Assembly (NCBI GenBank): GCA_041665345.1
Contig: JBAYJA010000003.1
Span: 103,202-167,201, forward strand
DNA from: Patescibacteria group bacterium
Lineage (GTDB): Bacteria; Patescibacteriota; Patescibacteriia; PEXW01
Length of the DNA stretch: 64,000 bases
Direction: 5' to 3'
Part shown: positions 5,127 to 46,064 of the stretch, piece after piece
Position numbering within the stretch: position 1 is the stretch's first letter
Layout: every line of letters begins with the position of its first letter
Translations under genes and position numbers: made by a program
The notes under the pieces: model-generated
Told to the model about the DNA's origin: nothing
Database searches by the model: none
What the model saw: the letters and a program-made list of their open reading frames with translations, nothing else

Positions 5127-6698
5127 CTACCTCCTTATGAGCGAAGTGAGTTTTGCGGTACTTTTTAGTGTGGGTTTCTTCACCATGCGTGCCTCGACCG
5201 TGGCAGTAAATTTTTGGTACTTGGTTTTTTTTGGTGAGGTGAGGCGGACAACGAAGGTCTGCGTTTGACCCGAGACAATGACTGCTGTGGCAGATTTTTT
5301 CTTATTCACGGTTGCGGCCCAACCTTTGGGCAGGTTCGTGACGCGGAGTTCTGCTGTACGCCCTCCGCAGAGCACAGAGTTATGCTTCACGGTGACGTTG
5401 AAGCTGAGTTCTTGGCCGGGTTTCCCAATGCTTTTTATGGCTTTGGCGGTTACGGAGGGTGCTTTCCACTCGCAAAGCGATTCCCCGGTGAACCGCACCC
5501 GAATAGCCATGGCGGATGCATTCCGCGCCAGCACGCCAAAACTGACACCAGCCACGGGGTCGCTATAACTTGAACCAAGCGGCAGCGCTGGGTCGTAGAT
5601 ATCCATACCTCCACGCTGTGAACCCGGGGTCATGTCCAGTATCGTTGAACTGAACCGGGTGCCGGTAGAGTTTCCCATGTGGACGAGAACACCATTTGGT
5701 ACGCCCAATTGCTGCATGGTTGGAATGTAGCCAGTCACATTATCAAATCCGATGGACTGCCGGTATTCCAGGTAGTACCAACTAGTCACGTCGCCGTTGG
5801 CATCGCGAGCCTGGGGAATTTTCAGCACCTTTGGGCCAACGCCTGCGAGTTGGTATGGATATATAGTGAAGTCTTTTGATTGCGTTACCGTAATGACATC
5901 CGCTGGTGGTAGCCAGCCATAGTTCTCCCGTTGCTGCGCCGTCAAGAGCAACGACCGCGAGCCAGTTGCCCCCATGATATTGTAGTGGTCGGCATATTCA
6001 ACCTCCCTGCAGTTCGTGCCATTGATGACGGCCGGTGGGTCACATTGCCAAGAATTCGCGTGCGCCAATCCCATTAAGTGTGCCAGCTCATGGTGTGGAT
6101 TGCTGCCCATATTGCCGTTGATGTCCACAATGCCGTACCGTACATTCCCCGCTTCGGGCACTGGTGTATGCGACGCCAGACCTTCTGCGCCACACAGCTT
6201 CTGCCTGGAGAGCACCATGATCGTGTTGTACTGCGTATAGTCAATATCGGCGTCGGCTGCCGCAATTGCATCGCCGAAGTATGAGGTCCAATCACAGTCC
6301 CCGTCAGTCTCCGTCGCCGGCGTATCAATGACGTACCATGACCCGTTATTGTCGAACACATCGCCAGTGACGGAAACTTCGCCATTGGAAACTTCCGTAA
6401 AATACGAGGCCATGGAGTACGTATTGGAAAAGAGTTCGCCAGTCACAAAATTCTTTGTCCATGGATTTTTGGTACCGTAGATTTTTGGTTTTGTGGGATT
6501 ATCGGTAAAGGTTACCAGGATGACGGCAACTTTATAATTCGGGAAGGCTTCCAAGTAATTGTAACTAGTTGGAGCCGCCACGTAGCCTGCTTTCACCTGC
6601 AAGGGGAAAAGGAGTATTGCGATACACGTGACGAATACGCCGGTAGCGATGATTTTTTGGAGGGAGCGTGTGTATTGGTTCATGAAACTAGTATACAC
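5127..6698 (-). CDS. Secreted metzincin-type zinc metalloprotease
   Basis: Signal peptide; HELAHLMGLAH = HExxHxxGxxH; 523 aa. Confidence 0.7.
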   Translation of the reverse strand: MYTSFMNQYTRSLQKIIATGVFVTCIAILLFPLQVKAGYVAAPTSYNYLEAFPNYKVAVILVTFTDNPTKPKIYGTKNPWTKNFVTGELFSNTYSMASYFTEVSNGEVSVTGDVFDNNGSWYVIDTPATETDGDCDWTSYFGDAIAAADADIDYTQYNTIMVLSRQKLCGAEGLASHTPVPEAGNVRYGIVDINGNMGSNPHHELAHLMGLAHANSWQCDPPAVINGTNCREVEYADHYNIMGATGSRSLLLTAQQRENYGWLPPADVITVTQSKDFTIYPYQLAGVGPKVLKIPQARDANGDVTSWYYLEYRQSIGFDNVTGYIPTMQQLGVPNGVLVHMGNSTGTRFSSTILDMTPGSQRGGMDIYDPALPLGSSYSDPVAGVSFGVLARNASAMAIRVRFTGESLCEWKAPSVTAKAIKSIGKPGQELSFNVTVKHNSVLCGGRTAELRVTNLPKGWAATVNKKKSATAVIVSGQTQTFVVRLTSPKKTKYQKFTATVEARMVKKPTLKSTAKLTSLIRR

Positions 6699-8987: not shown

Positions 8988-10301
8988 TTATTCGTGCCAC
9001 CCCTTCTCTTCCATGGTGTGCTTCAGGTCGCGTATCCGCTGCTCATCTTCATTGATGATTCGGTTAATGCTGTCAGCAAGTTTTTGAAAAGGCCCACCCG
9101 CTTTTACTGCAAGACGACGGTTTTCCCCAGTTTCTATGGACACTTCATGTACATTCTTTAGCTCGTCTTGCAACTCTGCAAACGGGTGGCTGATGGTTTT
9201 TCGGAAAATAAGGAAGAAAGCGAAGAGGAAGACTTGCGTGAGGAGGATATAGAAAACCGCAAATCCAACAGCGCGTGCTTGCAGTCCAGCAGCAGCAATA
9301 TCGGTTGTGGAGCCATCAAGGAAAAGCCGCAGCACGCCCAGCGTTCCTTGGCCCGAGTTGACGTGGAGGGGCATGGTTACAATCATGGCACTACCCAGAC
9401 TTTTTTCAGACTCTGGGAGGGAATTGCTGGTAGGCACATAGCGAACTGTACCAATACTCTTCAAACCTTGGGCTATATCCTCATCAATTGTCGTACGTGT
9501 ATTGACCCGATCAGCAACATCGGAACCAATGATCAAGCCGTCCGGGAGAATCACGTACACACGTTTTGTTGTCGCGGTCGTAAATTGTTCAACGAAGTTG
9601 GTAATTTCCTTTTGCCCTTCCTCGCTCTTTGGAATGAATGCCTTGGCAGTCAGGTGCATTTCTGATTGGCGGGCAATGAATTCTTGGAATACTTTGGTTT
9701 GGTTCTCAATGACAATGCTCTCCGTCCGGCCGTTCATTTGCCCAACGAACGTAGCGCCCACGACTAAGGTGGCAACGCTGCAAATGATGAAGAGTGCTTC
9801 CATCCCTGCGCCCGGGTACTGTGAGCGGGCGCGAGCGGCGCCAAAAGCCAGGCAGAGAATAGCCGCCACGCCAGTTGCACCTCGGGCAATGACCCCTCCC
9901 ACCCCCAGCGGCTGGAAAGCGGAGACAATTTGCAAGCAGAAAACCAGTGCGACAAACCCCAGGACATATGGCAGGGCGGCCGTGAGACGAGCCAAGTGCG
10001 GGTGTGCCCGAAGCTTCTTCAGCCACAGCCAGGCACTGGTGATGCAGACGAGGTTCAGGCCAAGGAGTCCAACACTCACCCACTGGACGGAGGGTTGGCT
10101 GGCAATGTTTCGCTCCACCAGCCAGATGGTGACAATGCTGGTTTGTGCGATTACCGTATTGAACACCAGGATTCGGAGCGGGCGTACAATTCTGCTCTCC
10201 GTGTACCGCCGTTGCATGAAGTACAGGAAGAAGAACGCGATGGTATTTGCAGCCAAGGCGATGCCGACGAAACCGTCTATGAGAATAGTTGGTGTGGTCA
10301 T
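8988..10301 (-). CDS. Membrane signalling protein: N-terminal multi-TM region, extracytoplasmic sensor-like domain, TM, HAMP domain; no kinase or other output domain
   Basis: Hydrophobic segments; HAMP-like AELQDELKNVHEVSIETGENRRLAVKAGGPFQKLADSINRII; the protein ends about 25 aa after the HAMP. Confidence 0.55.
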   Translation of the reverse strand: MTTPTILIDGFVGIALAANTIAFFFLYFMQRRYTESRIVRPLRILVFNTVIAQTSIVTIWLVERNIASQPSVQWVSVGLLGLNLVCITSAWLWLKKLRAHPHLARLTAALPYVLGFVALVFCLQIVSAFQPLGVGGVIARGATGVAAILCLAFGAARARSQYPGAGMEALFIICSVATLVVGATFVGQMNGRTESIVIENQTKVFQEFIARQSEMHLTAKAFIPKSEEGQKEITNFVEQFTTATTKRVYVILPDGLIIGSDVADRVNTRTTIDEDIAQGLKSIGTVRYVPTSNSLPESEKSLGSAMIVTMPLHVNSGQGTLGVLRLFLDGSTTDIAAAGLQARAVGFAVFYILLTQVFLFAFFLIFRKTISHPFAELQDELKNVHEVSIETGENRRLAVKAGGPFQKLADSINRIINEDEQRIRDLKHTMEEKGWHE

Positions 10302-10304
10302 ACC

Positions 10305-10754
10305 TTACGAGGTCGTTTGTGGACGGCCCTGGGCGTCAATGTGTAAAACTTCAATAAGTTGGGGATTGAGGACGTGTTCCGAGGGTTTTCCGGCGAGCAC
10401 GTCCCGGGTTTTTTGCACCAGTTGTTCGGGTGTTAAATCAGCTTTCACGACAATGTCTTTGGCGCCATACCAAAGCGCCTTTTGAATGGTCGCAGGATCG
10501 CTGAGGTTGGAGACGATGAGAACGGGAATGGCGCTCGTCCGTCGGTCGGACATGAGCGCGCGGGTCGCATCGAAACCATCAACTTTTGGCATGATGAGGT
10601 CCATGAGAATGATGTCTGGCTTCACCTTCTCTGCGACTGCCACAGCATCGGTGGCGTCAGACTTCACGGTAACCACAAATTTCGCTCGAGAGAATTTTTG
10701 TTGGTACATTGGCTGGAGCAGCTGATCGTCTTCAAAAATCAGGACGTGTGGCAT
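10305..10754 (-). CDS. Stand-alone response-regulator receiver protein
   Basis: MPHVLIFEDD...PDIILMDLIMPKVDGFD...IPVLIVSNLSD; start taken at the internal Met to avoid overlap with the upstream receiver gene. Confidence 0.7.
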   Translation of the reverse strand: MPHVLIFEDDQLLQPMYQQKFSRAKFVVTVKSDATDAVAVAEKVKPDIILMDLIMPKVDGFDATRALMSDRRTSAIPVLIVSNLSDPATIQKALWYGAKDIVVKADLTPEQLVQKTRDVLAGKPSEHVLNPQLIEVLHIDAQGRPQTTS

Positions 10755-10755
10755 A

Positions 10756-11163
10756 CTAGCGACGTTGCAGGATGGTACGCGCCTGGTTGATAATGTCTGC
10801 GACTGAGCTTTTATGCTTGACGATGAAGCACTCAACGCCAAGTTCTGCACATTTCTCTCGTTCAATATTGCTATCTAAGTGGGAGACAATCATCACCGGG
10901 ATGGAGAAGGTTGTCTTTCCTGCCCGTAGTTTCTCGAGGAGTTCTCGGCCACCAAGTTTTGGCATGATGAGGTCAAGGATCATGAGGTTTGGTTTCTGGC
11001 GCTGTGCCAATTGCAGCCCCTCTTCGCCGTTTGAGGCGACTTCCACGTTGTACCCAAGTGCTGTCAGTTCCTTCTTGAAGAGATTAGAAACCGGAGCGTC
11101 GTCGTCGACGACAATGATTCGTTGTGGTCGAGGTTGCTTGGTAGTTGGGGTAGAAAGCGCCAT
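10756..11163 (-). CDS. Stand-alone response-regulator receiver protein (CheY-like)
   Basis: RIIVVDDDAP...PNLMILDLIMPKLGGRELLEKLR...IPVMIVSHLD. Confidence 0.8.
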   Translation of the reverse strand: MALSTPTTKQPRPQRIIVVDDDAPVSNLFKKELTALGYNVEVASNGEEGLQLAQRQKPNLMILDLIMPKLGGRELLEKLRAGKTTFSIPVMIVSHLDSNIEREKCAELGVECFIVKHKSSVADIINQARTILQRR

Positions 11164-11174
11164 ACGCGTTTCAG

Positions 11175-12434
11175 TTACTCGTAGCGAAGTGCATCGAGCG
11201 CGTTGATTTTTGCAGCGCGACGCGCAGGATAGAGTCCGGTGATCAAACCCACGAGAATGATGATGCCGGCGATAATGAGCAGGAAGATGAAGGGAATGGT
11301 GAACAGGTCTACGGCTTGCCCACCCAAGCGCGCAGCCAGTCGGTTGATGATGTAGTTCACTAGTTCGCCAAAGGCAGTACCAACGATGAGTCCGGAAATG
11401 CCACCCAAGACACCAATGAGCAAGGCTTCGGAAAGGAAGAGGATGTAAATGTGTCGGCTGGTGGTGCCCAAGGACTTCATAATGCCCACCTCGCGCGTGC
11501 GTTCCAGCAAGGACACCGTCAGGGTGTTGAAGGCGCCCAATGAGGCAATGAGCATGGCGATGAGGCCGAAGATGAACATGACAATCTGGAAGATGAAGAA
11601 AATGCGGTCAATTTGCCCAACCGTATCTGCCACGGAGTCTACTTGGTACCCCTGCGCTTCAATAGCCGTTCTGGCCGCAGCAAGATTTTCTCGGGTATCC
11701 AGTTTGACCCGGGCTAAGTTGAAATTGGTTATGCCTGCATCGGTAAAAATTTTCAGCGGCATGTAGGCTAAACTATTATCACTCGGCACAATACCAACAA
11801 TTTTTACCTCCACATCTTTCGTCTTAATAGAACTCGTGCTGGTGTTCGTGTTGCCATTAGTATTTGCCGTGGAAGCATTTGTGTTGACCAGGGATCGTTC
11901 TTGTTCCACCGGACCGGTGTCGGGAAGGACAATACGCATCGTCACCTTTTGCCCCAGGAGGTCTTGCGGCACTTTTGCACCTAAGAGTTCTGCGGCGGTT
12001 GCGCTCACAATCGCACTCTGCTCATCGTCTGATGTGTAGGTTGTGCCAAAGTTGGTGACGACACCTTCGATGGTTAGGTACTGTGCCTGCACGCCGTAGA
12101 GCGCAATGTCCGTCACTGATTCGCCGCGCACCACTTGTCCTGATTGAGAGATTGAGGAGCTGACGCTAATGACGTTTGGCAATGCACGGAATTTTTTCAG
12201 TGATTCCTCATTAATTTTTAAGATGGTTGAAGCACCGACGCTGACATCAAGTACGGTAATGGCCGCGACGTTCGTGACACGGCTCACAATGAGCGCTTGC
12301 AAGCCAAAGCCTAAGCTTACTAAAAAGACGATGGCGCCAATGCCAATGGCCATGCCGCCGATGGTCAGGAATGACCGGAGCTTCCGCATGCGGAGGCTGG
12401 AGGCAGCTAAGTAAATGATGTAGCCGAATTTCAT
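11175..12434 (-). CDS. ABC transporter permease, FtsX/MacB family
   Basis: N-terminal TM, large periplasmic domain, C-terminal FtsX-like 3-TM bundle. Confidence 0.75.
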   Translation of the reverse strand: MKFGYIIYLAASSLRMRKLRSFLTIGGMAIGIGAIVFLVSLGFGLQALIVSRVTNVAAITVLDVSVGASTILKINEESLKKFRALPNVISVSSSISQSGQVVRGESVTDIALYGVQAQYLTIEGVVTNFGTTYTSDDEQSAIVSATAAELLGAKVPQDLLGQKVTMRIVLPDTGPVEQERSLVNTNASTANTNGNTNTSTSSIKTKDVEVKIVGIVPSDNSLAYMPLKIFTDAGITNFNLARVKLDTRENLAAARTAIEAQGYQVDSVADTVGQIDRIFFIFQIVMFIFGLIAMLIASLGAFNTLTVSLLERTREVGIMKSLGTTSRHIYILFLSEALLIGVLGGISGLIVGTAFGELVNYIINRLAARLGGQAVDLFTIPFIFLLIIAGIIILVGLITGLYPARRAAKINALDALRYE

Positions 12435-12439
12435 AGGGC

Positions 12440-13141
12440 TTAGCTCAGGAACGTACCGGTGCCAGAGAGGATTTTCCCATCGCGCACGTAAATGGTTTGG
12501 GAAGCGTAGTGCACGTACTCCATGTTGTGGGTGACCATGATAATGGTCAATTTCTTTTCTTCATTTAGTTGTTTAAAGGTTTGCATCACTTTTTCCGCAG
12601 ACTCCGTATCCAGGTTGCCGGTTGGTTCATCGGCGACGAGGATCGAAGGGTCATTCACCAATGCACGGGCGAGCTGGACTTTCTGCTGCTGACCACCAGA
12701 GAGTTCGGAGGGAATAAATTTTGCCCGCTGATCCATGTCAAACTTTTTGAGCAGCGCCATGGCGCGTGCTTCCCGTTCACTCCGTTTCACGCCCATGATT
12801 GCTAAGGGGAAGGCGACGTTGTCCAGCACCGTGAGCGAGCGAATCCAGTCTGACTTCTGGTACACAATCCCAATGCGGTGCAAGCGAAAGCGCGCCAGGT
12901 CGTCTGGTTTTTTCAGATCCAAGCGTTCACCCGCGATGGTCACCTGTCCACTCGTGGGATGCTCCAAGCCCAGGAGGGTATGCAACAGGGTAGACTTCCC
13001 ACTGCCAGACGGGCCCAGGAGAATCACAAATTGCTCCGGCATAATTTCCAGCGACACATCTTTGAGAATACGCACGGGCTCTTTGCCCAAGCGGAATTCT
13101 TTAATGACATTTTTGACCGTGATGAGCGGCTTTGTGGCCAT
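12440..13141 (-). CDS. ABC transporter ATP-binding protein (MacB/LolD-type)
   Basis: Walker A GPSGSGKST, signature LSGGQQQKVQLARAL, Walker B ILVADEPTGNLD. Confidence 0.85.
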   Translation of the reverse strand: MATKPLITVKNVIKEFRLGKEPVRILKDVSLEIMPEQFVILLGPSGSGKSTLLHTLLGLEHPTSGQVTIAGERLDLKKPDDLARFRLHRIGIVYQKSDWIRSLTVLDNVAFPLAIMGVKRSEREARAMALLKKFDMDQRAKFIPSELSGGQQQKVQLARALVNDPSILVADEPTGNLDTESAEKVMQTFKQLNEEKKLTIIMVTHNMEYVHYASQTIYVRDGKILSGTGTFLS

Positions 13142-13164
13142 AGTACTAGTGTAGCAGGCGTTCC

Positions 13165-16100
13165 CTATCCACCGAAGAGGTTCCCAACGCCTCCAAGCCA
13201 GGAGAAGGTGTCTTCCAAGTTGCCAATGACGATTTGCAGGAAGGATTGGCGAGCACGACTGGTGAGAATGCTGTAGCCTTGGGATTTGGATTCATTTCCT
13301 GCTTTATCTTTTGAAACCACCCGGAAGTGGTAGGTCTTGGCTGGCGTGAGGCCACCAATGACCACTAGGTGGTCGCGGACGCGCTCGGCATTTTCATCGG
13401 TCTCTGCGCTGTAGCTGGAACCAGAGAGGCCTTCACCGTACTGCACCTGTGAGCTGGTGGGCTCATTGGTCTTCCAAGAGACGATAATTTGGATTTTTGC
13501 CGCGTCACCAGAGCCCACGGTATTGGACTCAGATTTCACTTCGCTGATAACAGGCGGCGTGGTGTCTTCCAAGGTGCGGAACTTGTTTTCGCCAGAGACG
13601 GCTTCGTAGCCAAACTGGTCGCGACCACGGACTTTGAACTTGTACTCCGTGGCGTCTTCCAGACCGAAGACCAGAATGCTATGCTCCCGAACCAGCGAGC
13701 TGTTGCCCTGGGTTTTTGGAGCAGCATTCTCATTGTAGTACTCCACTTCTGAGGTCGTCTGCACGTTTGTGGTCCACTTCACTTCTGTCTGCCCCTCTGC
13801 TTTGTTCTCCGCCGAGACCGTCAAAATCTTTGGGAAGGTGAGGGTCGTGAAGTTGTAGTCGTCCGATGCGATTGGGTTATCGGCTCGGTCCACACCTTCC
13901 AGGCGGAAGTGGTAGGTGGTGGAGTCTTTTAAGTTTTCCAATTTTACAGTATGCGTACTGCTGAAGCCGCTAGCGGCGGTGTAGGTGAAGCCGTAGTCTG
14001 TCGTTGGGCCGTACTGGATAATTGCCGTTGCTTCTTTGGTTGATGTCCAGGAAATGATGGCATCGTTTAACCGGATGTCGGTAATTTTCACATTCTCCAC
14101 GCGGGGCGCTTCCAGGGTGGTGAATTGGCCAATGCTGGAGTAGGCAATGTTCTCATCAATGTCAATGCTCTTCACCCGGAAGAAGTATGTGGTTTTTGGT
14201 TGCAAGCCCGTTACCCGGACTTCATGCGCGTCAATCTGGGTTGCCGTGCCCTGCTCTTTGGAGAGCGCGTCAACCGTCGTTCCAAACTCAACGAAGGACG
14301 AGGCAGTACGTTCGGTGCGCCAGGTCACGACCGCAGCAAAAGAGTCTGGAGCGACTATTGGCCCCTCCACAATTGGTGGCGGGCTAGTGAACCGACCTTC
14401 GGGCTGCTCGGCTACGATGCTGGAATTTCCAGAGAGTGCGCCGCCAGTGCCAACCGCGCGGAGGAAGTACGCGTACACTTTGGTGCTGTCCAAACCAAGG
14501 TCCAGGTAGCCCAGCGTTTTGTTGGTTGCAATGCGGCTGTAATTCGTGGGTGGTTCATCGGTTGTGGATGGGCCATCACAATTCGTTGCAGTTGCTGACT
14601 CTTTGGTACAGCGGTAGATGGCGTACTGCTCCACGCCTGAGCCCTTGTCTGTGGGTTCGTCCCAGGTGAGGGTTACGGAGTACCGTTTGGTGGAGCGATC
14701 AGAAGAGTCAATGGCTTGCACGCTGCCCGGCGCACCGGGTGCCGTGGAGGTAAAAGTGAAGTCCACTGATGCGACGGCTGTGTAGTCAATATTTCCAATT
14801 GCATCGGCGGCAATCAGGTAGAACGTGTTCGTTCCTTGCTTGGTCGCAGCCGAGAAGGCGGCCAGGCTTCGGTCCGCGGTTTGCGTGGTGGTGGTCCAGC
14901 CACCATCTGGGCTGGGGGTGGCGCTGCCGGCGGTGTTGTAGCCACACGTATCTGCTGATGGCAGTTCATTCAAGGTGTAGCAGTACCGGAGTATGTCCGC
15001 CGCATCGCACGGCGTCTGCCCCAGACAGCTACTGGGCAAGCCCCAGGAGAAGGAGAAGGTATTATTATCCGTTTGGCTCGTGGGAGTCACCACCAAGCCC
15101 TGCGGTGCTGCCGGCGTGTTCCCAGAGAAGTAGTAGTTCACTGGTGCGTAGGCAGAGGAGTAGTTTCCTGCTAGGTCACGGCTCCGCACTTTGAAGACGT
15201 TGGCTCGCGCTTGGTAGGCTTGGATGTTTGCAATGGAGAGGGTGGCTGCGCTAACGCAGGTTTCGGTCGCACCAGGACCTTCGGTGGTGTAGCAGTACTG
15301 GTTGATGCCCGAGCCGCCGGTATCGCTCCCCGCAGTCCAGGTAAAGCCAAAACTATTCAGTGACGAGTACCCAGCCGGGGTAGCCACAATGCTCCCTGGC
15401 GCGCTGGGGTTTGCCACGTCTACTTGGAAGGTGAAGCCCGTCACTGCCGCGTCGGTCACGTTGGCATTGCGATCCCGGGACATGATTTTCAAGTAGTACG
15501 TGCCGGAGGTGAGCGCGGTGGAACTTTGCGACGCCGCATTCCAGCTACCGGTCACGCCGTCACCTGCAACTGCGTAGTAGTGTGAGCCACTGACGTGCGC
15601 CAGGTTACTGGCGTTGCACGCCGCACCAGACGGATCCGTGCAGCTGTTGTCTGTCCCAAAGTAGACGTAGAAGCCTTCCAAACCAATGCCACCAGCATTG
15701 TCACTCCCCGTCCACTCGAAGTAGGGTGTAGCATCATTGGTCCAGTCACCTGGGTTGATGCTGACGGTCTTCCCATTATCGGTGTACGCTCCGGCACTCA
15801 CTGGGTTCGTGGGGTCAGTGCCGTCGGTGTAGGATGACCAGGTGACGTCGTAGATAGTTGGCGTTGCTACTTGATCTGAACGGAACGTGATGCGCGCTTG
15901 GCCGTACCGTGCCAGCGTGGACGCCACCGTGGACGTTTTTACAGTTCCCACTGGATGGGTGTTTGTCACCGCAGTCCACGAGCCCCAGTGACTATCCGTG
16001 GCGCTGGCTGCGCAACCCGCGTCGCTGCACGTTCGGGTTTCCACGGTCATGGTTGTGTTCGTCGCTTCAGCCGCATTCACCGCAATGCCACCGAAGCCGT

Positions 16101-19100
16101 ACAGCCCTGCCCCAAAGTCCAGAATTTCTGAGGTCCACTGGCCAAAGTCTTCGTAGCCCGTGCTCGCAGTAGCTACAATGTAGCGGTCAATGGCTGACGT
16201 GCTGGTGCCGCGGTTTCCCAGAATCACGTTGTTCGTGGTCATGACTAATTGGCCATTGGTGTACGTCTGTGGCACTGCTCGAGTGGTCCATACCCCGTTC
16301 GAATCGCCGTCTGGGTCTAAGACGTACATGTTCGTGTTCGTGGTACCTTGTGGTACGAGGATGTTTCCCTGTCCATCTGCCACGCATGCATCAGCACCCA
16401 CAAGGACAGCTGGGGCGCTCTCCACTGTTGCAGCGGCATCCCACGTTTCCGTACCAATATTGAAGCGGTATATATTTGCCTGACTATTGGCACGTGTAAG
16501 GTAGATGTAGTCCGTTCCACTCACGTTGATGCGTACGGCACATGAACCGCTCCCGTTGAGGACGGGAATGGTGGAGGCCACCGTCGACCACGTGTTTGTG
16601 GAGATGACGTATTTGTAGTACGCCGTCGTGCCACCCTGAGCCGTGTAGATGGTGTTTGTGCCGTCCCACACCAAGTCTGCGCCCGCAGTTGGTTCACCCG
16701 GTGTGTTTGCTAAACGGGTCCACACATCGGTCGTTGGGTTGTATCGGTAGAAGAAACCAACGTTGTCACCTTGCGCTTCGTTTCCTGTCAGTACGTACAC
16801 ACCATCGTAGGAATCTGTACCGTGGTTGACGTACTCCGCATCGGCACCCGTGGAGAGTGTGTGCGGAACGTCTGCTTTGCGGAGCCAGGCATTCGTGGTT
16901 GGATTCAGCTGCCACCAGTCACTAAAGGTAACGCCCCGACCAGCGTAGACGTATCCAGTCTGCGTATCATAGGCCATTGTGCCTGTGCTAAAGCCAGCGG
17001 TGGAGAAGCCATGTGGGATAGCTGTGCCTTTCCAAAGGTTCCGCGTAATGTCAAAGGCTAGAACCGTAGCTTCAACGTTGTACCCACGGAGCGAGTACAA
17101 GGTGTTTGTGGCGGTATCGTAGGCCAAACCTTGTTCGCTCCCTTGACCTTTGATCGTTGGCAACGTTGGCATGCTTGTCCAGGTGCTGGTGCTCAGGTCA
17201 AAGCGGTAGAAACCATTACTTGCCGTACCTCGGATAAGGTAGAGGTAGGAGCCCACTCGACGAATAGCCGCGCCGTCACCTGTCCATACTGGGATGTTCG
17301 TGGTGTACGACCAGGTGACAGCTCCACTGGAGGCGATAGTACCTTTCCAGAAGTGGGACGTGTTGTTTCCACGGGTGGCGTACACGCAGCCACCGGCTGC
17401 AGTGCAGGCGCCGATGTTCGTTGGAACGTAGGATAACGCGCCGCCCAGGCCAACTGTTTGGTCCACGTCAGAGCGTTGCGTCCACACTCCTGTTCCCAAG
17501 TTGTAACTGTAGAATCGGGTGCTGGGCGCCGTGCTGCCACCCAGGAAGTAAATCGTATCCGACCCATTGTACGCCAGCGATGCGCCATTCGCGGCAGTGA
17601 GTGGAAGTACAGTAAGTGACCCAGCGCCAGGTGAGGCGGCGGTCCAGGTATTGGCGGTAATGTCGTACCGTCGCCACTCCGTCGTCGTCGCGCCACGGGT
17701 GGCAAACACGCAGCCACTTGCGTCAGCGCAACCGGTTGCTCCGCTGGAGACGAACACCGCGCTCGCACCCGTGTTCACGGCGGCACCATAGTTTGTTTTT
17801 GCGGTGATGACCTTGGTGTTGATGTTGTAGTGGTAGAAGGTTTGCTGCCCAGCTCCACGGAGAATGTACAGGCTGCCATTTCCATCACCCACAATTGCCG
17901 CACCGTTGCTGACTGCAGCTGGGAGCGGTGCCTCACTGGACCAGGCGCCGTTACTCACTGCTGAGAGCTGCAAGGCTGTGCCGCTGCTTGCATTGGTGTT
18001 CACATCCGTTGCCGTGGTGCCGGTGTAGGCGAAGTCAGCTTGGCTGCTCCACTGCCGGGTTGCGGCTGGGCTAATACCCGTGTAGGTGTAGAGGAAGAGG
18101 TTCGCAGCACTACTCACATTTCCAGCCACATCCTTGGTAGCAACGCGCAAACAGTACTGTGTCCCATTGACCACGCTACTGTTCACCGTATAGGTTGTGC
18201 CGGTTTGAAAGTAGTCTTCGCTGGTAGAAGGATTGAATGTGCTGCAGCTTGCGCCGCTAGTCCAGGCGACGTAGTAACCAGAAATTGGTGACTCAGTCTG
18301 TGCGGGTGGAGTGAATTCAAAGTATGGGTTGGTGGCAAACGTCGTGGCAGGCGTAGCTAAGGTTGTGGTCTTTGCGCTGGAGGTCCAAGCGCTCACTGTT
18401 GGGTTTGCAGGCGCCGTGCTGTCTTTCTCGTAGGTGATAGTGAAGTCATCCAGCACGGGTGCGTCATCCCCAGCGGCAGAGTTCAGCTGCGCTTTCACCT
18501 GGATGTAGCGATTAGCAGCCGAGGCAATGGTCGTGCCGCTCACGCTCGCCCAGGCGCTCCAGCTGGCGCCGTCGTCGGACGACCGGGTTGAGAAATCTAT
18601 AGTATTACCATTCAACGTGGCGTTGCTGGTCAGTGACGTGAAGGAGCTGACGTAGTGCAGATCCATGGGCGCGGAGACCCAGGTGGCGGCGGGGATGTAC
18701 GCATCCGTTTCAAAATTGAATTTGTGAATGCCGTTGAAGTTTTCACCGCGCATGAGGTACATGGTTCCCGCCGCGTTCCCATGCGTTACCCCATGGGAGC
18801 GACCCAGCCGAACCGGCGCATCCGCAGCACGTGACCAGGAGTTACCGCTCATGTCGTAGCGCCAGACTTCTTTACTCATCTTCCCAGGGAAGACGTAGAG
18901 GTTATCTGTTCGGTCGTACACCATGGTATTGGTGTACTGTGCCCCGGCAACGTTTGTGCCTGGCGCTGTCGGCATGTTGGTTAACTCGTCCCACGTGTCG
19001 CCGGCAATGTTGAATTTCAACAAGACGCCGCGGCCATTGCCAATGAGCGCGTACACATCTGTGGCGTCGGCCACGTCGGTCCGATTGCTTGCCAACGCAG

Positions 19101-21075
19101 CGCCGTAAGACACGTTCAGGTACGGCTCACCATTTGCGTTAATGGCATTTTCCGCGGCAAACGTCGGTGAAGGAAGAGCCTGGCCGTCATAGTAGGAGAA
19201 GAGGACACCGCCATTGCCGTGGAGCAGGTAGAAGCGATTGTCAGCAGTGCAGGCAATATCTGCGCCAGCGCCAGCAGCGGCAGGAGCAGTAAGCGTACTG
19301 AAGGCTTGATCCAGTGCTGCGTTTATGGGGAAGTTATACACTTGCGTATTGGTGCTGCCACCGCCACGGACAATGAATAAGTTTCCGCTTCCGTCGTAAC
19401 ACATTGCAGAGCCGGTTGAAAGCGCAGCAGGCGTGCTACTCACACTGGCTGCCCAGGTTCGGGCGCCAATCAGGTACCGGCGAATGGGAGCCGCCGCATT
19501 TGCTTGCGCCACGAATAGGCAACCGGACGCGTCGCTGCAATCTGCTCCGTTTGGTACGTAAGCGATGAGATTATCACCCGTAGTACTGGTTGCAGCTTGC
19601 GTGATGATTGCGTCCCACTTTGGCGTTCCCACATCGTACCGAACAAATTCTGGAACACCACCCAGAGTTGCGTACACGTACCCATTGAGGTAGATCATGG
19701 ATGCGCCTGCTGCGGTGGCCCGTTGGGTATTTTCCGTCGCGGCGGCATTCGCATCCCAGGTGCCACCCGAGCCAGAAATCGTATTCACATCGTATTTCAC
19801 GAATTCCGTGTTCCCGCCGTTGAAGACGTAAATGTCGTCATTCGTGTTATCGAATGCCATGGCACTGCCCGCTGCGATGTTGCCAGTACCAGTGTACGAA
19901 GGAAAATTTTGAAAATTTGTAAACCACTGCTCAAGTGCAAGGTCGTAACGGAAAAAGAAACGGTTACTACCCAGAACGCTATAGATACACCCCGTTGTGC
20001 AGTAGGTATCACTCCCGATGGTGAATGCAGTGTCAGAAAAGATTAGGGGGTGTGACGTGGTTGCGTTTACCGGGTCTGGCACGGATGTACCACTGGACCA
20101 GGCATTTGTCTGCGTGTCGTAAATGAAGAAGCCTGATTGCCCACCGCCTTGGACTGCGTAGAGTTTGCCATTGTTCCCGCTTTCAATGTCCGCGCCACCC
20201 TGTGCAGAAGTTGAGCCCCATACATCTGGCGCGTTGCTTAGCGTGGACCACGTGTCCGTGTAGATGTCGTACTTGAAGAATGCGCCGGTTGCGTCTGTCG
20301 TAGAAAGTCCGTCATTTCCGTTGATCGCGTAAATCGCGCCGTCGTAGTAGGTGATGGCGCTGCTATAGAGGAATGGCGTGGGCGCATCAGCAAGTTGCTT
20401 CCAGGTGTTCGTGTCTGGGTTGTACCGGAAGAAGTCAGGTTGCCGACCACCAACAATCATGTATACGTAACTACCATCAGTGGTCAGGTCCGTACCAATG
20501 TCAGCTGGTTCCGAAGCCAGACCGTAGTTCCCGCGGAGGTTTTCTGGAAAACCCGGCGTGCTGGCATCCCAGGTGCCAACCCCGCCGCTTTTGATGGTCA
20601 AACTCCCTGGGGTGGTTGCAGTGTCCAGGGTGTTGTTCCAAAATTCTCCCGCTTCCCAATCCGCTTGGCTAGAGACAACTCGCGTTTCCGCAACGGCCAG
20701 GATGCTGCGAACCGCAAAGATCATGCCTAGCGCTCCGAGGACAACAACTGCAGCCACGGTATAGCGTCGGTGATGTTCTTGGATCGAGATTTGCGCCTTG
20801 GTTACCTGTGGTCGGCTATTTCTGATGCTTGAAACAATTTTTGTAGCGTACCCTCGTGTTTTCTGTAAAAACCCCACGAATGTCAACGTTGTATTGTTGC
20901 TGGTACGCTTGTGGAAAGACCGGGTTTTTAGCGGAATTGACAAAGTAACCGGTTTTTTCGGTTTCTGAGGAGCTCGAGGGGTTTTTTTAGCTAATTTCAG
21001 CGAAAAATTTGACTTTTTCAGGCCTTTTTTCGCTGCTTTTTTGCCGTTTCGTGCCGACAAGCTAGAACGGGGCAT
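13165..21075 (-). CDS. Giant (2636-aa) membrane-anchored surface protein with kelch-type beta-propeller repeats and C-terminal fibronectin type III domains
   Basis: N-terminal TM YTVAAVVVLGALGMIFAV; many kelch-like units (YVYMIVGGRQPDFFRYNPDTNTWKQL...); C-terminal FN3-like units (...LTWDEPTDKGSGVEQYAIYR...); the AT-rich Lys-rich first ~90 codons may be 5' UTR, so the true start may lie downstream. Confidence 0.7.
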   Translation of the reverse strand: MPRSSLSARNGKKAAKKGLKKSNFSLKLAKKTPRAPQKPKKPVTLSIPLKTRSFHKRTSNNTTLTFVGFLQKTRGYATKIVSSIRNSRPQVTKAQISIQEHHRRYTVAAVVVLGALGMIFAVRSILAVAETRVVSSQADWEAGEFWNNTLDTATTPGSLTIKSGGVGTWDASTPGFPENLRGNYGLASEPADIGTDLTTDGSYVYMIVGGRQPDFFRYNPDTNTWKQLADAPTPFLYSSAITYYDGAIYAINGNDGLSTTDATGAFFKYDIYTDTWSTLSNAPDVWGSTSAQGGADIESGNNGKLYAVQGGGQSGFFIYDTQTNAWSSGTSVPDPVNATTSHPLIFSDTAFTIGSDTYCTTGCIYSVLGSNRFFFRYDLALEQWFTNFQNFPSYTGTGNIAAGSAMAFDNTNDDIYVFNGGNTEFVKYDVNTISGSGGTWDANAAATENTQRATAAGASMIYLNGYVYATLGGVPEFVRYDVGTPKWDAIITQAATSTTGDNLIAYVPNGADCSDASGCLFVAQANAAAPIRRYLIGARTWAASVSSTPAALSTGSAMCYDGSGNLFIVRGGGSTNTQVYNFPINAALDQAFSTLTAPAAAGAGADIACTADNRFYLLHGNGGVLFSYYDGQALPSPTFAAENAINANGEPYLNVSYGAALASNRTDVADATDVYALIGNGRGVLLKFNIAGDTWDELTNMPTAPGTNVAGAQYTNTMVYDRTDNLYVFPGKMSKEVWRYDMSGNSWSRAADAPVRLGRSHGVTHGNAAGTMYLMRGENFNGIHKFNFETDAYIPAATWVSAPMDLHYVSSFTSLTSNATLNGNTIDFSTRSSDDGASWSAWASVSGTTIASAANRYIQVKAQLNSAAGDDAPVLDDFTITYEKDSTAPANPTVSAWTSSAKTTTLATPATTFATNPYFEFTPPAQTESPISGYYVAWTSGASCSTFNPSTSEDYFQTGTTYTVNSSVVNGTQYCLRVATKDVAGNVSSAANLFLYTYTGISPAATRQWSSQADFAYTGTTATDVNTNASSGTALQLSAVSNGAWSSEAPLPAAVSNGAAIVGDGNGSLYILRGAGQQTFYHYNINTKVITAKTNYGAAVNTGASAVFVSSGATGCADASGCVFATRGATTTEWRRYDITANTWTAASPGAGSLTVLPLTAANGASLAYNGSDTIYFLGGSTAPSTRFYSYNLGTGVWTQRSDVDQTVGLGGALSYVPTNIGACTAAGGCVYATRGNNTSHFWKGTIASSGAVTWSYTTNIPVWTGDGAAIRRVGSYLYLIRGTASNGFYRFDLSTSTWTSMPTLPTIKGQGSEQGLAYDTATNTLYSLRGYNVEATVLAFDITRNLWKGTAIPHGFSTAGFSTGTMAYDTQTGYVYAGRGVTFSDWWQLNPTTNAWLRKADVPHTLSTGADAEYVNHGTDSYDGVYVLTGNEAQGDNVGFFYRYNPTTDVWTRLANTPGEPTAGADLVWDGTNTIYTAQGGTTAYYKYVISTNTWSTVASTIPVLNGSGSCAVRINVSGTDYIYLTRANSQANIYRFNIGTETWDAAATVESAPAVLVGADACVADGQGNILVPQGTTNTNMYVLDPDGDSNGVWTTRAVPQTYTNGQLVMTTNNVILGNRGTSTSAIDRYIVATASTGYEDFGQWTSEILDFGAGLYGFGGIAVNAAEATNTTMTVETRTCSDAGCAASATDSHWGSWTAVTNTHPVGTVKTSTVASTLARYGQARITFRSDQVATPTIYDVTWSSYTDGTDPTNPVSAGAYTDNGKTVSINPGDWTNDATPYFEWTGSDNAGGIGLEGFYVYFGTDNSCTDPSGAACNASNLAHVSGSHYYAVAGDGVTGSWNAASQSSTALTSGTYYLKIMSRDRNANVTDAAVTGFTFQVDVANPSAPGSIVATPAGYSSLNSFGFTWTAGSDTGGSGINQYCYTTEGPGATETCVSAATLSIANIQAYQARANVFKVRSRDLAGNYSSAYAPVNYYFSGNTPAAPQGLVVTPTSQTDNNTFSFSWGLPSSCLGQTPCDAADILRYCYTLNELPSADTCGYNTAGSATPSPDGGWTTTTQTADRSLAAFSAATKQGTNTFYLIAADAIGNIDYTAVASVDFTFTSTAPGAPGSVQAIDSSDRSTKRYSVTLTWDEPTDKGSGVEQYAIYRCTKESATATNCDGPSTTDEPPTNYSRIATNKTLGYLDLGLDSTKVYAYFLRAVGTGGALSGNSSIVAEQPEGRFTSPPPIVEGPIVAPDSFAAVVTWRTERTASSFVEFGTTVDALSKEQGTATQIDAHEVRVTGLQPKTTYFFRVKSIDIDENIAYSSIGQFTTLEAPRVENVKITDIRLNDAIISWTSTKEATAIIQYGPTTDYGFTYTAASGFSSTHTVKLENLKDSTTYHFRLEGVDRADNPIASDDYNFTTLTFPKILTVSAENKAEGQTEVKWTTNVQTTSEVEYYNENAAPKTQGNSSLVREHSILVFGLEDATEYKFKVRGRDQFGYEAVSGENKFRTLEDTTPPVISEVKSESNTVGSGDAAKIQIIVSWKTNEPTSSQVQYGEGLSGSSYSAETDENAERVRDHLVVIGGLTPAKTYHFRVVSKDKAGNESKSQGYSILTSRARQSFLQIVIGNLEDTFSWLGGVGNLFGG

Positions 21076-21223
21076 GGGATTTTGGTGTATTTTTAGCTAA
21101 CTTTAGCCAAAATTTTACGCAGAAGAACTTCTACTAATTAGTAGGAATTATAACCAATTTTGGCTGGAAACTGTATGTATATTGTATAACAAAAATCGAC
21201 TTTTGTCAAATATTGATAATCTC

Positions 21224-22318
21224 CTATTTCACCAACATTCCGTCCCCAAAGGAGAAGAAACGCAGCTTCTTGCGGATTGCCTGCTGGTAGATTCTCATGA
21301 GTTCTGATCGCCCGGTCAGGCTAGCAACCAGCATGAGCAAGCTAGACTGCGGAACGTGGAAGTTCGTTATGAGTCCATTCACCATTTGGCATTTGTAGCC
21401 TGGTTGAATGAAGAGGCGGGTTTCGTCATTTCCTGCCTTGAGTTTGCCATTTCTGACAGAAGACTCTAGGGCTCGGGCAACGGTGGTGCCCACGGCAATG
21501 ATTGGACGGTTTTGCAGCTTTGCTTTGTTCAGCGCCTGAGCAACAGTAGGCGAAATGGCAAAAGTTTCTGCATGGAGTTTTTTGGTTTTGAGTTTTTCCG
21601 GCGTCAGCGGGGCAAAGGTGCCAAGATTCACGTGGAGCGTTACGTATTCCATGCCAATCCCTTGTCGCTTCAGATCAGCGAGCAAACGTTTGGTAAAGTG
21701 TAATGACGCCGTGGGCGCGGCCACGGAGCCGCTACGTTTGGCAAAGATTGCTTGGTATTCTTTCTTACGCTGAGCTTCAGTTAACGGTGAGTGCTTCAGG
21801 TACGGCGGTAGCGGCGTGCTGCCGAATTTTTCCAAAACCGTAAAGAGTTTGGTAACTGGAAACGACGGTTTGAGGATGTACTCACCTTTCGCATGTCGAA
21901 TCACCGTGAAGGAGAGTTGTTTCGCCAGGGTCAATTGTTCGGCAGCACCCGCCTGGCTCGGCTGACCTCGCTTGGCGGGCAGGGACAGCAGCCGATCAGC
22001 CAGCACGCGTATATTTTTTCCAGCTGTGCCAACGTAGAGCACGCGAACTTTGCCTCCGGTTTTTCGCGTGAGGGTCAGCCGGGCGGGAATGACTTTCGTT
22101 TCATTGAAAACGAGCATGGCATTCTTTGGCAGGTATTTTCCAAGATTTCGAAAAGTGTCAAATTGTACATGCTTGGTTTTCCGGTCGTACACCAAAAGCC
22201 GGCTGCTGTCCCGTGGCCGCGCTGGGGTTTGGGCAATCAGCTCCTTGGGGAGTGTATAGTCGTACTGCTTCACAATACGTACAAAGCTCTTTGGGGCTTG
22301 ACGAAATGTGTTAGGCAT
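21224..22318 (-). CDS. queA: S-adenosylmethionine:tRNA ribosyltransferase-isomerase
   Basis: LITNFHVPQSSLLMLVASL...FFSFGDGMLV. Confidence 0.9.
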   Translation of the reverse strand: MPNTFRQAPKSFVRIVKQYDYTLPKELIAQTPARPRDSSRLLVYDRKTKHVQFDTFRNLGKYLPKNAMLVFNETKVIPARLTLTRKTGGKVRVLYVGTAGKNIRVLADRLLSLPAKRGQPSQAGAAEQLTLAKQLSFTVIRHAKGEYILKPSFPVTKLFTVLEKFGSTPLPPYLKHSPLTEAQRKKEYQAIFAKRSGSVAAPTASLHFTKRLLADLKRQGIGMEYVTLHVNLGTFAPLTPEKLKTKKLHAETFAISPTVAQALNKAKLQNRPIIAVGTTVARALESSVRNGKLKAGNDETRLFIQPGYKCQMVNGLITNFHVPQSSLLMLVASLTGRSELMRIYQQAIRKKLRFFSFGDGMLVK

Positions 22319-36388: not shown

Positions 36389-37423
36389 CTAGACTTTTCT
36401 TGTGACTAGCTTGGGTTTCTGTCCCACGTGTCCCCAGTGGCCAAACCAGCGGACGAGTTTCGACATGACGCCACCCTCTTCTAGCTTAAGGAAGAAGAGC
36501 GTGGTGGCAACATACTGGAAGGACCAGAAGATGCCCGCGAACAGGAAGAGGATGATGAGCGTGATCACCAGCGACGCATTAATGTAGTTTCCAAGGCCGC
36601 TGAGGAATCCGGCACTGTCAGAGATGAACAGGTTGACGATTGGCGGGAAGAACAGCGTTGAAAAGGCAACGACAATAACCGTGAAGATGAGGAAGAGGAT
36701 GATGGCCATCTCCACACTCGCAAGCCAGTGCTGGCGGAAGAGGTGCCAGGCATCTTTGATTGCTTGGCGAACCGTGCGGCCACGCAACGCCACGTACGCC
36801 GAGGCAAACTGCAGTAAGAAGCCCACCACCACCGCAAACGGTACGAGGATAATGAAGGTAATGATCCCCAGGGTGGTTGCCCAGATTTCTTGACCGTTAC
36901 TGAGGTACAGTGAGACTAAGGGCACGGCAATGAGCATAGCAGCACCAGTGGTCACCACACGCTGCAGAATGTTCAACCAGAAAATGGGCCAGAAGGTTCG
37001 GGCGCCATCACGAAAACTCTCCTCTGGCTGCACAATTTTTCCGCGGCGGAGTTTTTCCGTAGCGGTGATGAGTGCACCCTGGGAGAGGACAGACATCCAA
37101 ATGAAGAAAGCGAAAATGCCAATGACGATGAGTAGTGTGAGAATGTTGGCAACGGACACGGTTTTCCAGAACTGCGATACGTTATTCAGAATGAATGACA
37201 GGGTTTCTGATTGGTAGAAGATTTTTGCCTGCGCCAGGTTCTCACCCTGATTCTGAATAATTGAAAGGTTGGTAAGGAAGGAGTCAATACCACTGACCAG
37301 GGCAGAGTTCATGAGGACAGCGAAAAACCCAAAGAACCACAGGAACTTGTGGCGGCGGGCAATGCGCCACGCCTCGCGGATAGTCTGCAGGTAGATGGTT
37401 TTTTGGATGGGTTTTTCCTCCAT
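36389..37423 (-). CDS. Polytopic integral membrane protein, hypothetical
   Basis: 344 aa, at least 8 hydrophobic segments. Confidence 0.5.
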   Translation of the reverse strand: MEEKPIQKTIYLQTIREAWRIARRHKFLWFFGFFAVLMNSALVSGIDSFLTNLSIIQNQGENLAQAKIFYQSETLSFILNNVSQFWKTVSVANILTLLIVIGIFAFFIWMSVLSQGALITATEKLRRGKIVQPEESFRDGARTFWPIFWLNILQRVVTTGAAMLIAVPLVSLYLSNGQEIWATTLGIITFIILVPFAVVVGFLLQFASAYVALRGRTVRQAIKDAWHLFRQHWLASVEMAIILFLIFTVIVVAFSTLFFPPIVNLFISDSAGFLSGLGNYINASLVITLIILFLFAGIFWSFQYVATTLFFLKLEEGGVMSKLVRWFGHWGHVGQKPKLVTRKV

Positions 37424-46015: not shown

Positions 46016-46064
46016 GTCAATAAAAAGACCCGCCTCCAGATTGGGGGCGGGTAAAAGTACCTTA
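46016..46064 (-). terminator. Terminator-bearing 49-bp repeat (copy 1), downstream of ORF 46062..47054
   Basis: gtcaataaaaagacccgcctccagattgggggcgggtaaaagtacctta; on the minus strand a hairpin then a T-run; near-identical to 47119..47167. Confidence 0.7.

Follow-up and report, generated by a model that had tools for sequence, protein, structure and literature searches.

How is a protein of 2636 amino acids (aa) related to the ATP-binding cassette (ABC) transporter, the two stand-alone receivers and the kinase-less membrane sensor whose genes follow its own? The question is raised by positions 8988 to 21075 of a 64,000-nucleotide (nt) stretch of DNA from a Patescibacteria group bacterium (contig JBAYJA010000003.1, positions 103,202 to 167,201), which we call the window throughout, and on which an earlier reading of the letters alone (hereafter the original prediction) had commented. 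The organism, an uncultured and ultra-small bacterium represented by a metagenome-assembled genome, is a member of a small-genome Patescibacteria lineage, as that prediction held, and its relatives are labelled Candidatus Kerfeldbacteria. We regard it as probable that the giant protein and the ABC transporter constitute one functional unit, and give about even chances to the broader reading that the whole locus is one operon, encoding a cell-surface apparatus under regulation in Kerfeldbacteria-type Patescibacteria. The most informative feature of the locus, a conserved tail at the end of the giant protein, had been overlooked.

The region is completely filled, on the minus strand, by six co-oriented and tightly packed open reading frames (ORFs), as the list of ORFs and the measurement of their gaps indicate; seven genes had been counted before, with the ABC pair preceding the giant gene, while in transcription order the giant comes first and the pair after it. 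The genes and their predicted promoter are as follows.

13165-21075, minus strand: gene of the giant protein with Kelch and fibronectin type III (FN3) domains, 2636 aa, first in transcription order

12440-13141, minus strand: ABC ATPase gene, 233 aa; Pfam ABC_tran, E 6e-34

11175-12434, minus strand: permease gene, MacB_PCD plus FtsX, 419 aa; from Pfam and hydrophobic segments

10756-11163, minus strand: single-domain receiver RR1, 135 aa; Pfam Response_reg

10305-10754, minus strand: single-domain receiver RR2, 149 aa from the ATG at 10754

8988-10301, minus strand: sensor with seven transmembrane (TM) helices, a PDC domain and a HAMP domain but no kinase, 437 aa

21181-21209, minus strand: sigma70-like promoter, TTGACA-17-TACAAT, 11 of 12 consensus positions, 106 nt 5' of the giant's ATG

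From giant to ATPase, permease, RR1, RR2 and sensor the gaps amount to 23, 5, 11, 1, and 3 nt. The promoter is the sole strong sigma70-like site in the upstream region of the giant, and its hexamers (TTGAC...TAnAAT), their spacing and the ATG of the giant are kept in two of the related loci, which we number with the letter L (L018 and L019, giants 78-79% identical to the present one). Because the gaps are only 1-23 nt and a single promoter matching 11 of 12 positions is conserved in relatives, the six genes are predicted to be one operon behind that promoter. The start of RR2 deserves a comment, since the mechanically called ORF (10305-10865, with a TTG start at 10865) overlaps RR1; the ATG at 10754 is a plausible start because it lies 1 nt after the upstream stop, gives a receiver of normal length and matches the gene calls of related loci.

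What argues for a unit of giant and transporter is the recurrence of their genes. The trio of giant, ATPase and permease is found in about 30 non-identical loci, among which flanking genes are unrelated and the identity of the giants falls to 27%; to this extent the proposal that the genes form a module is borne out. The same order, with gaps of 2-120 nt, is present in L001, L018, L019, L007, L010, L012, L014, L015, and L017, and in L016 with one extra tail-bearing gene inserted in the trio; redundant loci were counted once (L001=L004, L002=L003, L006 within the L018 contig, L008~L009, L010~L011, and L012~L013). A scan of metagenome contigs seeded by nothing more than the last 60 residues of the giant gave 32 loci, and in 22 of them an ATPase and permease pair lies within about 450 nt of the stop codon of the tail protein. 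Of the others, L049 has the pair after a second tail protein, L024, L028, L030, and L031 end in another large gene, in the manner of L016, two (L032 and L042) hold too little downstream sequence to judge, and two more are matches to FN3 only. Judged by these gene orders, the trio is the evolutionarily conserved core unit. Two side observations belong here: in L010 (2276-9997) a second giant of 2573 aa, with NHL and Big_1 domains, directly precedes the Kelch/FN3 giant, with a gap of 3 nt, and the L003 and L006 contigs that carry the module were deposited as metagenome-assembled genomes of an 'uncultured Gammaproteobacteria bacterium', probably by an error of binning or labelling or because an epibiont was co-binned.

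The giant itself is an intact ORF, not interrupted by the frameshifts that would have undermined the earlier reading, and its length fits homologues of 2622-2642 aa. Its family comprises about 27 near-full-length homologues (2348-3315 aa, 27-83% identity, coverage 56-100%, mostly >=84%), which are named in databases only as "hypothetical" or "fibronectin type III domain-containing protein" and which, wherever a source is named, come without exception from lineages of the Patescibacteria group. The Kelch and FN3 domains that had been expected are confirmed by Pfam (Kelch_6 with 101 bits, fn3 with 75 bits, and Pur_ac_phosph_N with 83 bits), and along the chain the following regions can be distinguished.

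aa 1-105, 20761-21075, minus strand: variable N-terminus rich in Lys and Arg, with 27 K+R and 1 D+E in 105 aa

aa 106-130, 20686-20760, minus strand: hydrophobic segment (110-128) followed by A-V-A|E, candidate signal anchor or cleavable signal peptide

aa 135-830, 18586-20673, minus strand: first Kelch beta-propeller region, with Kelch_6, Kelch_1, and Beta-prop_ATRN-LZTR1 matches

aa 831-1010, 18046-18585, minus strand: about 831-918 without a Pfam match, then one fn3 (919-987)

aa 1011-1700, 15976-18045, minus strand: second Kelch beta-propeller region, with Kelch families and the mutarotase-like Kelch TIGR03548

aa 1701-2100, 14776-15975, minus strand: no Pfam family at E<=1e-3; FN3-like by eye only

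aa 2101-2603, 13267-14775, minus strand: run of FN3 and Pur_ac_phosph_N domains, the most conserved part

aa 2604-2636, 13168-13266, minus strand: conserved C-terminal tail, LTSRARQSFLQIVIGNLEDTFSWLGGVGNLFGG, at the extreme C-terminus in all family members

The tail has about 30 aa, with the pattern LTSRxRxSFLQxxIxNLExTFSWxG. All members of the giant family end in it, the stop codon always falling 19-25 aa after the start of the conserved motif, and even the most distant of them keep a recognisable form, VITPKATxSALDLVxxNLxxxFGFL. Moreover, the tail closes neighbouring proteins of different build, such as a 524-aa FN3 protein in L008 and a 1677-aa DUF2341/FN3 protein in L016, and L049 has two consecutive tail-bearing proteins. 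It is moderately hydrophobic (mean about 0.4, moment about 0.3) and is not predicted to form a TM helix. No model of Pfam or NCBIfam matches it, tails of the T9SS and PEP-CTERM type not having been tested as such. As a known sorting signal it can be rejected on several counts: LPxTG and RTX by motif search, a TM anchor by hydrophobicity, and described families by Pfam and NCBIfam. Along the whole giant, too, a direct motif search (which did not include the lipobox) found neither LPxTG nor GGxGxD, and there is only one hydrophobic segment. Searching for homologues with the tail alignment returned short fragments only, and the tail was seen in a Berkelbacteria record. In the literature searched, of which coverage was limited and which is no proof of novelty, no description was found of the tail, of its pairing with a type VII ABC transporter or of the sensor family. 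Beside these occurrences we note that in L052 (4437-16835) a 2944-aa CBM_4_9/FN3 protein with a divergent tail adjoins a diversity-generating retroelement (bAvd plus reverse transcriptase) and an AbiEii gene.

How conserved is the giant as a whole? With three relatives it shares 75-83% identity, and in the same comparison the housekeeping proteins QueA, PyrD, and Tgt reach 63-64%, 56-76% (70-76% against the closer relatives), and 76-78%. Conservation is likewise high in the ATPase (89-96%) and the permease (74-87%). Among close relatives the giant is 37% identical over its first 100 residues and 97% identical over residues 2501-2600, conservation increasing toward the C-terminus, and its C-terminal FN3 run is 89-97% identical among close relatives and 58-68% among those at middle distance. 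A fast-evolving adhesin was considered and ruled out, the identity being as high as that of housekeeping enzymes or higher; we take so strong a conservation as an argument that the giant has a central part in structure or mechanics and is no variable adhesin.

The way in which the giant leaves the cytoplasm bears upon its possible contact with the transporter. Residues 1-105 are a candidate cytoplasmic segment or extended n-region of a signal peptide, and the length of this N-terminal region ranges among homologues from 0 to about 190 aa; in some of them the entire N-terminus is a short classical signal peptide. An A-x-A/S motif follows the hydrophobic segment in 22 of 22 aligned homologues, about 5 aa before a conserved mature start (T.TSQ.DWEAGE), and because of this conservation the giant is perhaps secreted with cleavage of its signal peptide. 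From the sequence, cleavage and N-terminal anchoring seem equally likely. The original prediction of a membrane-anchored protein stands in so far as a hydrophobic N-terminal segment is present, and the anchoring itself is uncertain in view of the motif.

Turning to the transporter, the ATPase has all its motifs intact (Walker A GPSGSGKS, signature LSGGQ, Walker B ILVADE, and H-loop VTH), with Spr0694 (5xu1_A), MJ0796, and YtrE (E 4e-49) as its best matches in PDB. The permease combines MacB_PCD (21-260, E 1e-15) with FtsX (287-411, E 2e-20), and its hydrophobic segments (about 32-50, 278-296, 337-355, and 380-398) correspond to TM1, an extracytoplasmic domain and three further TMs, that is, to the type VII topology: four TMs, a large extracytoplasmic domain separating the first from the second, and FtsX as the C-terminal domain. 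It matches YtrF of Bacillus subtilis (9o9x_C) over its full length, residues 3-419 to 3-435, with E 7e-31. Together, the two would form a complete and catalytically competent type VII complex of MacB/FtsX/YtrEF-like kind. Transporters of this type work by mechanotransmission to partners on the outer face, with no passage of substrate across the cytoplasmic membrane (PMC5985334, PMC7668044, PMC12646458).

More specific identities were tried and rejected, the scores falling well below the NCBIfam cut-offs: for FtsEX, FtsX_Gpos with 43 bits vs 225, FtsX_actino with 41 vs 250, and FtsX_Gneg with 36 vs 255; for LolCDE, lolCE with 73 vs 362 and LolD with 219 vs 308; and for MacB, 64 bits vs 966. A tripartite MacAB-TolC pump was likewise set aside, no gene for an adaptor of MacA/HlyD type being present in the operon or in the related loci inspected (outer-membrane ducts and LolA/B were not searched for). 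The original prediction of a MacB-type pump with a large surface substrate is thus supported with regard to the partnership of ABC and giant, and unproven with regard to pumping, given that a MacA-type partner is missing.

The last gene of the operon encodes a sensor of unusual build.

aa 1-188 (gene at 8988-10301, minus strand): TM1-6, from hydrophobicity (6+1 helices) and the AlphaFold2 (AF2) model

aa 189-345: extracytoplasmic WalK-like PDC/sCache domain, from AF2 and Foldseek

aa 346-367, then 368-421: TM7 followed by a divergent HAMP domain; the C-terminus lies about 16 aa later, with no transmitter

Neither Pfam nor NCBIfam gives a match to this protein, the HAMP model of Pfam being absent even at E<=10. 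The assignment of residues 368-421 comes from an hhalign comparison with six sensors positive for Pfam HAMP (99.8%, E 8e-28), in which the Pro of ISHPFAEL is matched; weaker matches over residues 170-430 are to sensors with a TM, an extracytoplasmic domain, a second TM and a HAMP, followed by HisKA/HATPase_c, PAS-SpoIIE or HD-GYP outputs. An AF2 model from 11 sequences (predicted local distance difference test, pLDDT, 79.7), which replaced an earlier and too poor one from 3 sequences (pLDDT 58), has six TMs, a long helix running into an alpha/beta domain, TM7 and a helix-loop-helix. Its best Foldseek match is the extracellular domain, TM and HAMP of WalK (E 7e-7), followed by the isolated WalK receptor domain, and the PDC domain by itself matches WalK, CitA, KinD, and TlpA with E values of 7e-7 to 5e-3. 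Against the sequences of PDB the family profile has only insignificant matches, with the TM and HAMP of NarQ at E 0.6.

Only 8-9 full-length members of this sensor family came out of 1.84 billion representative proteins searched exhaustively with HMMER, and since all have 423-447 aa, we take the missing transmitter to be the native state. There is no conserved cytoplasmic His, and HisKA/DHp and HATPase_c are not present. The earlier description, a HAMP without a transmitter, holds for the kinase, which is lacking in all members, and is weaker for the HAMP, which profile-profile alignment detects and Pfam does not. No gene in the operon evolves faster than that of the sensor (27-50% identity, with PyrD at 56-73% in the same comparison), of which the HAMP and the helix that follows are the best-conserved part.

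Both receivers consist of Response_reg only (E 3e-20 for RR1 and 8e-20 for RR2), as predicted for CheY-like proteins without output domains. They keep the residues of phosphorylation, namely DDD/EDD, LDLIMP/MDLIMP with the phospho-acceptor Asp (ILDLIMP in RR1), VSH/VSN, and VKH/VKA. RR2 has in addition a conserved C-terminal extension of about 30 aa, AGK..H[VI][LI]N..L...[LF]HID.Q, which is found in the L025 orthologue as well and whose sequence suggests a docking peptide.

Are these three genes part of the same unit? All homologues of the sensor with enough context (L001, L018, L007, L020, and L025) sit directly after this ABC pair. The trio of two receivers and sensor is nevertheless absent from most lineages that have the core of giant, ATPase and permease, so that, contrary to the single module first proposed, it appears from its distribution to be a lineage-specific add-on beside this transporter. 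Most of the core lineages without the sensor have a LOG/SLOG-like gene instead, and L012 and L029 have also a stand-alone HisKA-only protein of 72-75 aa and one to three single-domain receivers. In these two loci (L029, 12526-15210; L012, 20987-23356) the ABC pair is followed by the LOG/SLOG-like gene, a small TM protein, the HisKA (DHp-only) protein and the receivers, an arrangement that looks like a phosphorelay with no ATP-binding kinase domain in the locus. In L025 (12103-14436) a permuted trio, receiver, 447-aa kinase-less sensor and receiver, lies behind a 2966-aa giant and its ABC. In our 64-kb window, a tblastn search with six HisKA+HATPase_c kinases and the HisKA-only protein found no histidine kinase at E<0.3.

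In mechanistic terms, the reading of these observations that we favour is the following. The giant would be exported by its Sec-type N-terminal segment, to display two blocks of Kelch propellers and a C-terminal stack of FN3 domains with the tail. The extracytoplasmic domain of the permease would then engage the membrane-proximal end of the giant; we propose such an engagement because type VII transporters act on extracytoplasmic partners (FtsEX on EnvC/PcsB, LolCDE on lipoproteins, and YbbAP on TesA). The likeliest contact would be the C-terminal FN3 stack and tail, and a contact of the tail itself with the permease is a tentative suggestion that we hold at somewhat less than even chances. 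Hydrolysis of ATP might subsequently hold, load, extend or release the giant, in the sense of anchoring, tensioning or conformational switching. The sensor and the two receivers could be a lineage-specific control unit, acting through direct contact with other proteins, either those of the ABC complex or an unlinked kinase; this control is proposed to be post-translational because RR1, RR2 and the sensor have no DNA-binding domain or kinase. Phosphate for the receivers might come from an orphan or unlinked kinase, or from acetyl phosphate.

A bolder version of the same idea is that the tail constitutes the recognition or docking signal of a hitherto unrecognised protein-handling system of Patescibacteria, in which a dedicated type VII transporter spends ATP to anchor, tension, deploy or release giant tail-bearing proteins for contact with a host or particle. 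In Kerfeldbacteria the 7TM-PDC-HAMP receptor without a kinase and the pair of CheY-like proteins would gate this motor, and the result would be a surface 'grappling' apparatus, controlled post-translationally in chemosensory style with no classical kinase in the operon. We offer this as a speculative possibility, which may well prove wrong.

Several points weigh against the favoured reading of the operon as a regulated surface apparatus. The link between giant and transporter is purely one of synteny, and the synteny has exceptions: L027 has no ABC within 10 kb of its tail protein, L008, a complete genome, has none in the approximately 10 kb fetched downstream, which is filled by FN3/DUF2341 genes, and L052, of divergent tail and non-Kelch body, has none within 8 kb. 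An uncleaved N-terminal anchor could leave the C-terminus distal from the membrane, hardly reaching the permease. The closest solved relative of the transporter, YtrEF, is itself of unknown function and only loosely tied to cell-wall homeostasis (PMC12772383). As for control, the restriction of the receivers and sensor to a minority of the core lineages has been described above, and with no histidine kinase in the 64 kb both the source of phosphate and the target of the receivers are purely inferential.

Some of these exceptions would be expected under a different division of labour, in which the tail inserts in the outer leaflet of the membrane, the transporter transiently extracts it, and the giant is passed to the wall or S-layer or released, so that a single ABC serves all tail proteins. 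If one transporter has many clients, tail proteins that do not stand beside an ABC, as in L027, L052, and possibly L008, need no special explanation, nor does the modular nature of the tail, which closes several different proteins and sometimes two before one ABC. Its moderate hydrophobicity is suited to such insertion; the A-x-A/S motif suggests a cleaved N-terminus, which would leave the tail as the sole attachment; and extraction is an established activity of type VII transporters, exerted by LolCDE on lipoproteins and by YbbAP on hydrophobic compounds (PMC12646458). However, the tail is not predicted to be a TM helix and lacks LPxTG, no LolA-like acceptor was seen in the operon (LolA/B were not searched for), and the high conservation embraces the whole C-terminal FN3 stack, not the tail alone, which suggests a lasting structural interface. 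We consider sorting and extraction of this kind doubtful, if worth keeping in mind.

The transporter could also be an ordinary peptide or antibiotic exporter of MacB/YtrEF type that has come to lie beside the giant by coincidence or through shared stress regulation, with the receivers and sensor serving a general response to envelope stress. The best match of the ATPase is indeed Spr0694 (5xu1), which we take to belong to a pneumococcal MacAB-like efflux pump said to give resistance to antimicrobial peptides. The ytr genes are induced by cell-wall antibiotics (PMC12772383), and the extracytoplasmic domain of the sensor resembles that of the cell-wall sensor WalK. Yet coincidence does not account for an adjacency that persists through very deep divergence in about 30 loci whose flanks all differ, with intergenic gaps as small as 2-30 nt, for an ATPase and permease far more conserved than housekeeping genes and in parallel with the giant, or for the recovery of the ABC by a search seeded with the tail only. 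These facts make the explanation unlikely.

Finally, that the sensor is a kinase which lost its transmitter, as a pseudogene or by an artefact of assembly or frameshift, with the receivers as remnants, is a highly improbable notion: the nearest of its remote relatives are complete sensors, with HisKA/HATPase_c, SpoIIE or HD-GYP outputs, and no kinase lies nearby, but all 8-9 members end at the same point in independent assemblies, with the HAMP and following helix best conserved, the gene order after the stop is conserved, with DUF378 or pyrD directly next and no remnant of HisKA/HATPase seen, both receivers keep all their phosphorylation residues, and a HAMP protein that lacks an output is already on record in Af1503 (PMC3585426).

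What, then, would the regulated surface apparatus mean for the biology of these organisms? Attachment to other cells is the presumed way of life of Patescibacteria. Their giant surface proteins are as a rule recorded as no more than putative adhesins (for example PMC13059738); here one family of giant proteins is paired, in a conserved and testable manner, with a specific ATP-driven type VII transporter, and the dedicated receivers and sensor would let the apparatus respond to the environment. The tail motif could be used to find client proteins in any genome. The repertoire of partners of type VII transporters would be widened beyond hydrolase activators, lipoproteins and efflux ducts, and the sensor would be the second natural case of a HAMP receptor that lacks an output, here with identifiable genomic partners.

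The leader of the giant gene contains further structure. The stretch 20760-21224 had been described as an AT-rich upstream region, but about two-thirds of it is coding: 20761-21075 is the N-terminus of the giant, and only 21076-21223 is intergenic. At least part of its richness in A+T arises because 20761-21075 encodes the Lys/Arg-rich N-terminus. The two direct repeats of about 30 bp reported there are real, with 33 nt and 27 of 33 positions identical; none of 300 sequences simulated with a first-order Markov chain of the region's base-transition frequencies reached this value, the maximum being 24.

21084-21116, minus strand: repeat copy in the 5' untranslated region (UTR), holding a 9-bp hairpin about 17 nt before the giant ATG

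20978-21010, minus strand: repeat copy in the coding sequence, codons 22-33, FSLKLAKK

The hairpin of the UTR copy is found in both the minimum-free-energy and centroid folds, and its palindromic core, GGCTT..AAGCC, lies at the same place in L018 and L019, although with three sequences only the evidence for covariation is thin. The peptide SLKLAKK of the coding copy is kept in the same two loci. Both repeat positions, considered as a candidate pair of regulator sites, are also kept there, with copies that are less alike (in L018 about 14 of the 23 core positions agree by eye). In addition, the giant gene has a perfect 10-nt inverted repeat (20998-21007 and 21026-21035, codons about 14-27), which forms a hairpin in the predicted mRNA fold, and the 215-nt leader and start region folds better than shuffled sequences (z = -2.8).

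The run of co-oriented genes extends beyond the operon on both sides with housekeeping genes, upstream with QueA (from Pfam) and a gene 76-78% identical to Tgt of L018 and L019, and downstream with DUF378, pyrD and two tRNAs. Elsewhere in the window, a 1028-aa ORF on the minus strand (29255-32341) is similar to Major Vault Protein, with matches to its shoulder (E 7e-15) and to Vault_3 repeats, and a tRNA-Ile with anticodon UAU lies on the plus strand (35948-36024). Such a tRNA is uncommon in bacteria, in which AUA is usually read with a lysidine-modified CAU, and TilS might be absent. Four ORFs of 330-603 aa, all on the minus strand (2629-4440, 5127-6698, 36389-37423, and 46062-47054), have no Pfam family at E<=1e-5.

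In concluding, it is useful to place the operon among known systems. Because their defining features, so far as tested, are not found here, it is not a type I adhesin locus, a MacAB-TolC pump, FtsEX or LolCDE. It resembles the loci of type I secretion adhesins (LapA, SiiE, and RTX proteins) in having a very large, repetitive beta-sandwich protein with a conserved C-terminal element beside an ABC; however, it has no RTX motif GGxGxD and no membrane-fusion protein, its transporter is of type VII rather than HlyB type, the giant bears an N-terminal Sec-type hydrophobic segment, and the organism is presumably monoderm. With MacAB-TolC and LolCDE it shares a permease of MacB_PCD plus FtsX and a LolD/MacB-like ATPase, which are separate polypeptides here, unlike in MacB of Escherichia coli. 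Patescibacteria being presumed monoderm, outer-membrane ducts and LolA/B are not expected. The sensor superposes best, in its extracytoplasmic domain, TM and HAMP, on WalK (top Foldseek match 9a5d, a model of the WalK-YycH complex), with a sequence identity of only 13-17%. WalH and WalI are precedents for membrane proteins that lack a kinase and modulate a partner in signalling. Like Af1503 of Archaeoglobus fulgidus, the sensor ends just after the HAMP without any output (PMC3585426); it differs from both WalK and Af1503 in six extra N-terminal TMs, in a HAMP too divergent for the Pfam model, and in its strict linkage to two single-domain receivers and a type VII transporter. Closest by sequence, ahead of MacB, LolCDE and FtsX, is YtrE2F2 of B. 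subtilis (PDB 9o9x), a type VII ABC of the MacB/FtsX superfamily with the same permease of TM1, extracytoplasmic domain and three TMs, a separate ATPase and a monoderm envelope, but the operon of YtrEF includes a second ABC (YtrBCD) and a GntR repressor and has no giant, receivers or HAMP protein. The functional template is given by FtsEX with EnvC, PcsB, CwlO or RipC and by YbbAP with TesA, in which cytoplasmic hydrolysis of ATP is transmitted to a partner on the extracytoplasmic domain of the permease (PMC7668044, PMC10694151, PMC12646458) and the genes of partner and transporter are often linked. In the present operon the permease has MacB_PCD rather than the extracytoplasmic domain of FtsX, and in the place of a coiled-coil hydrolase activator or a lipase the putative partner would be a Kelch/FN3 protein of 2636 aa with a novel tail.

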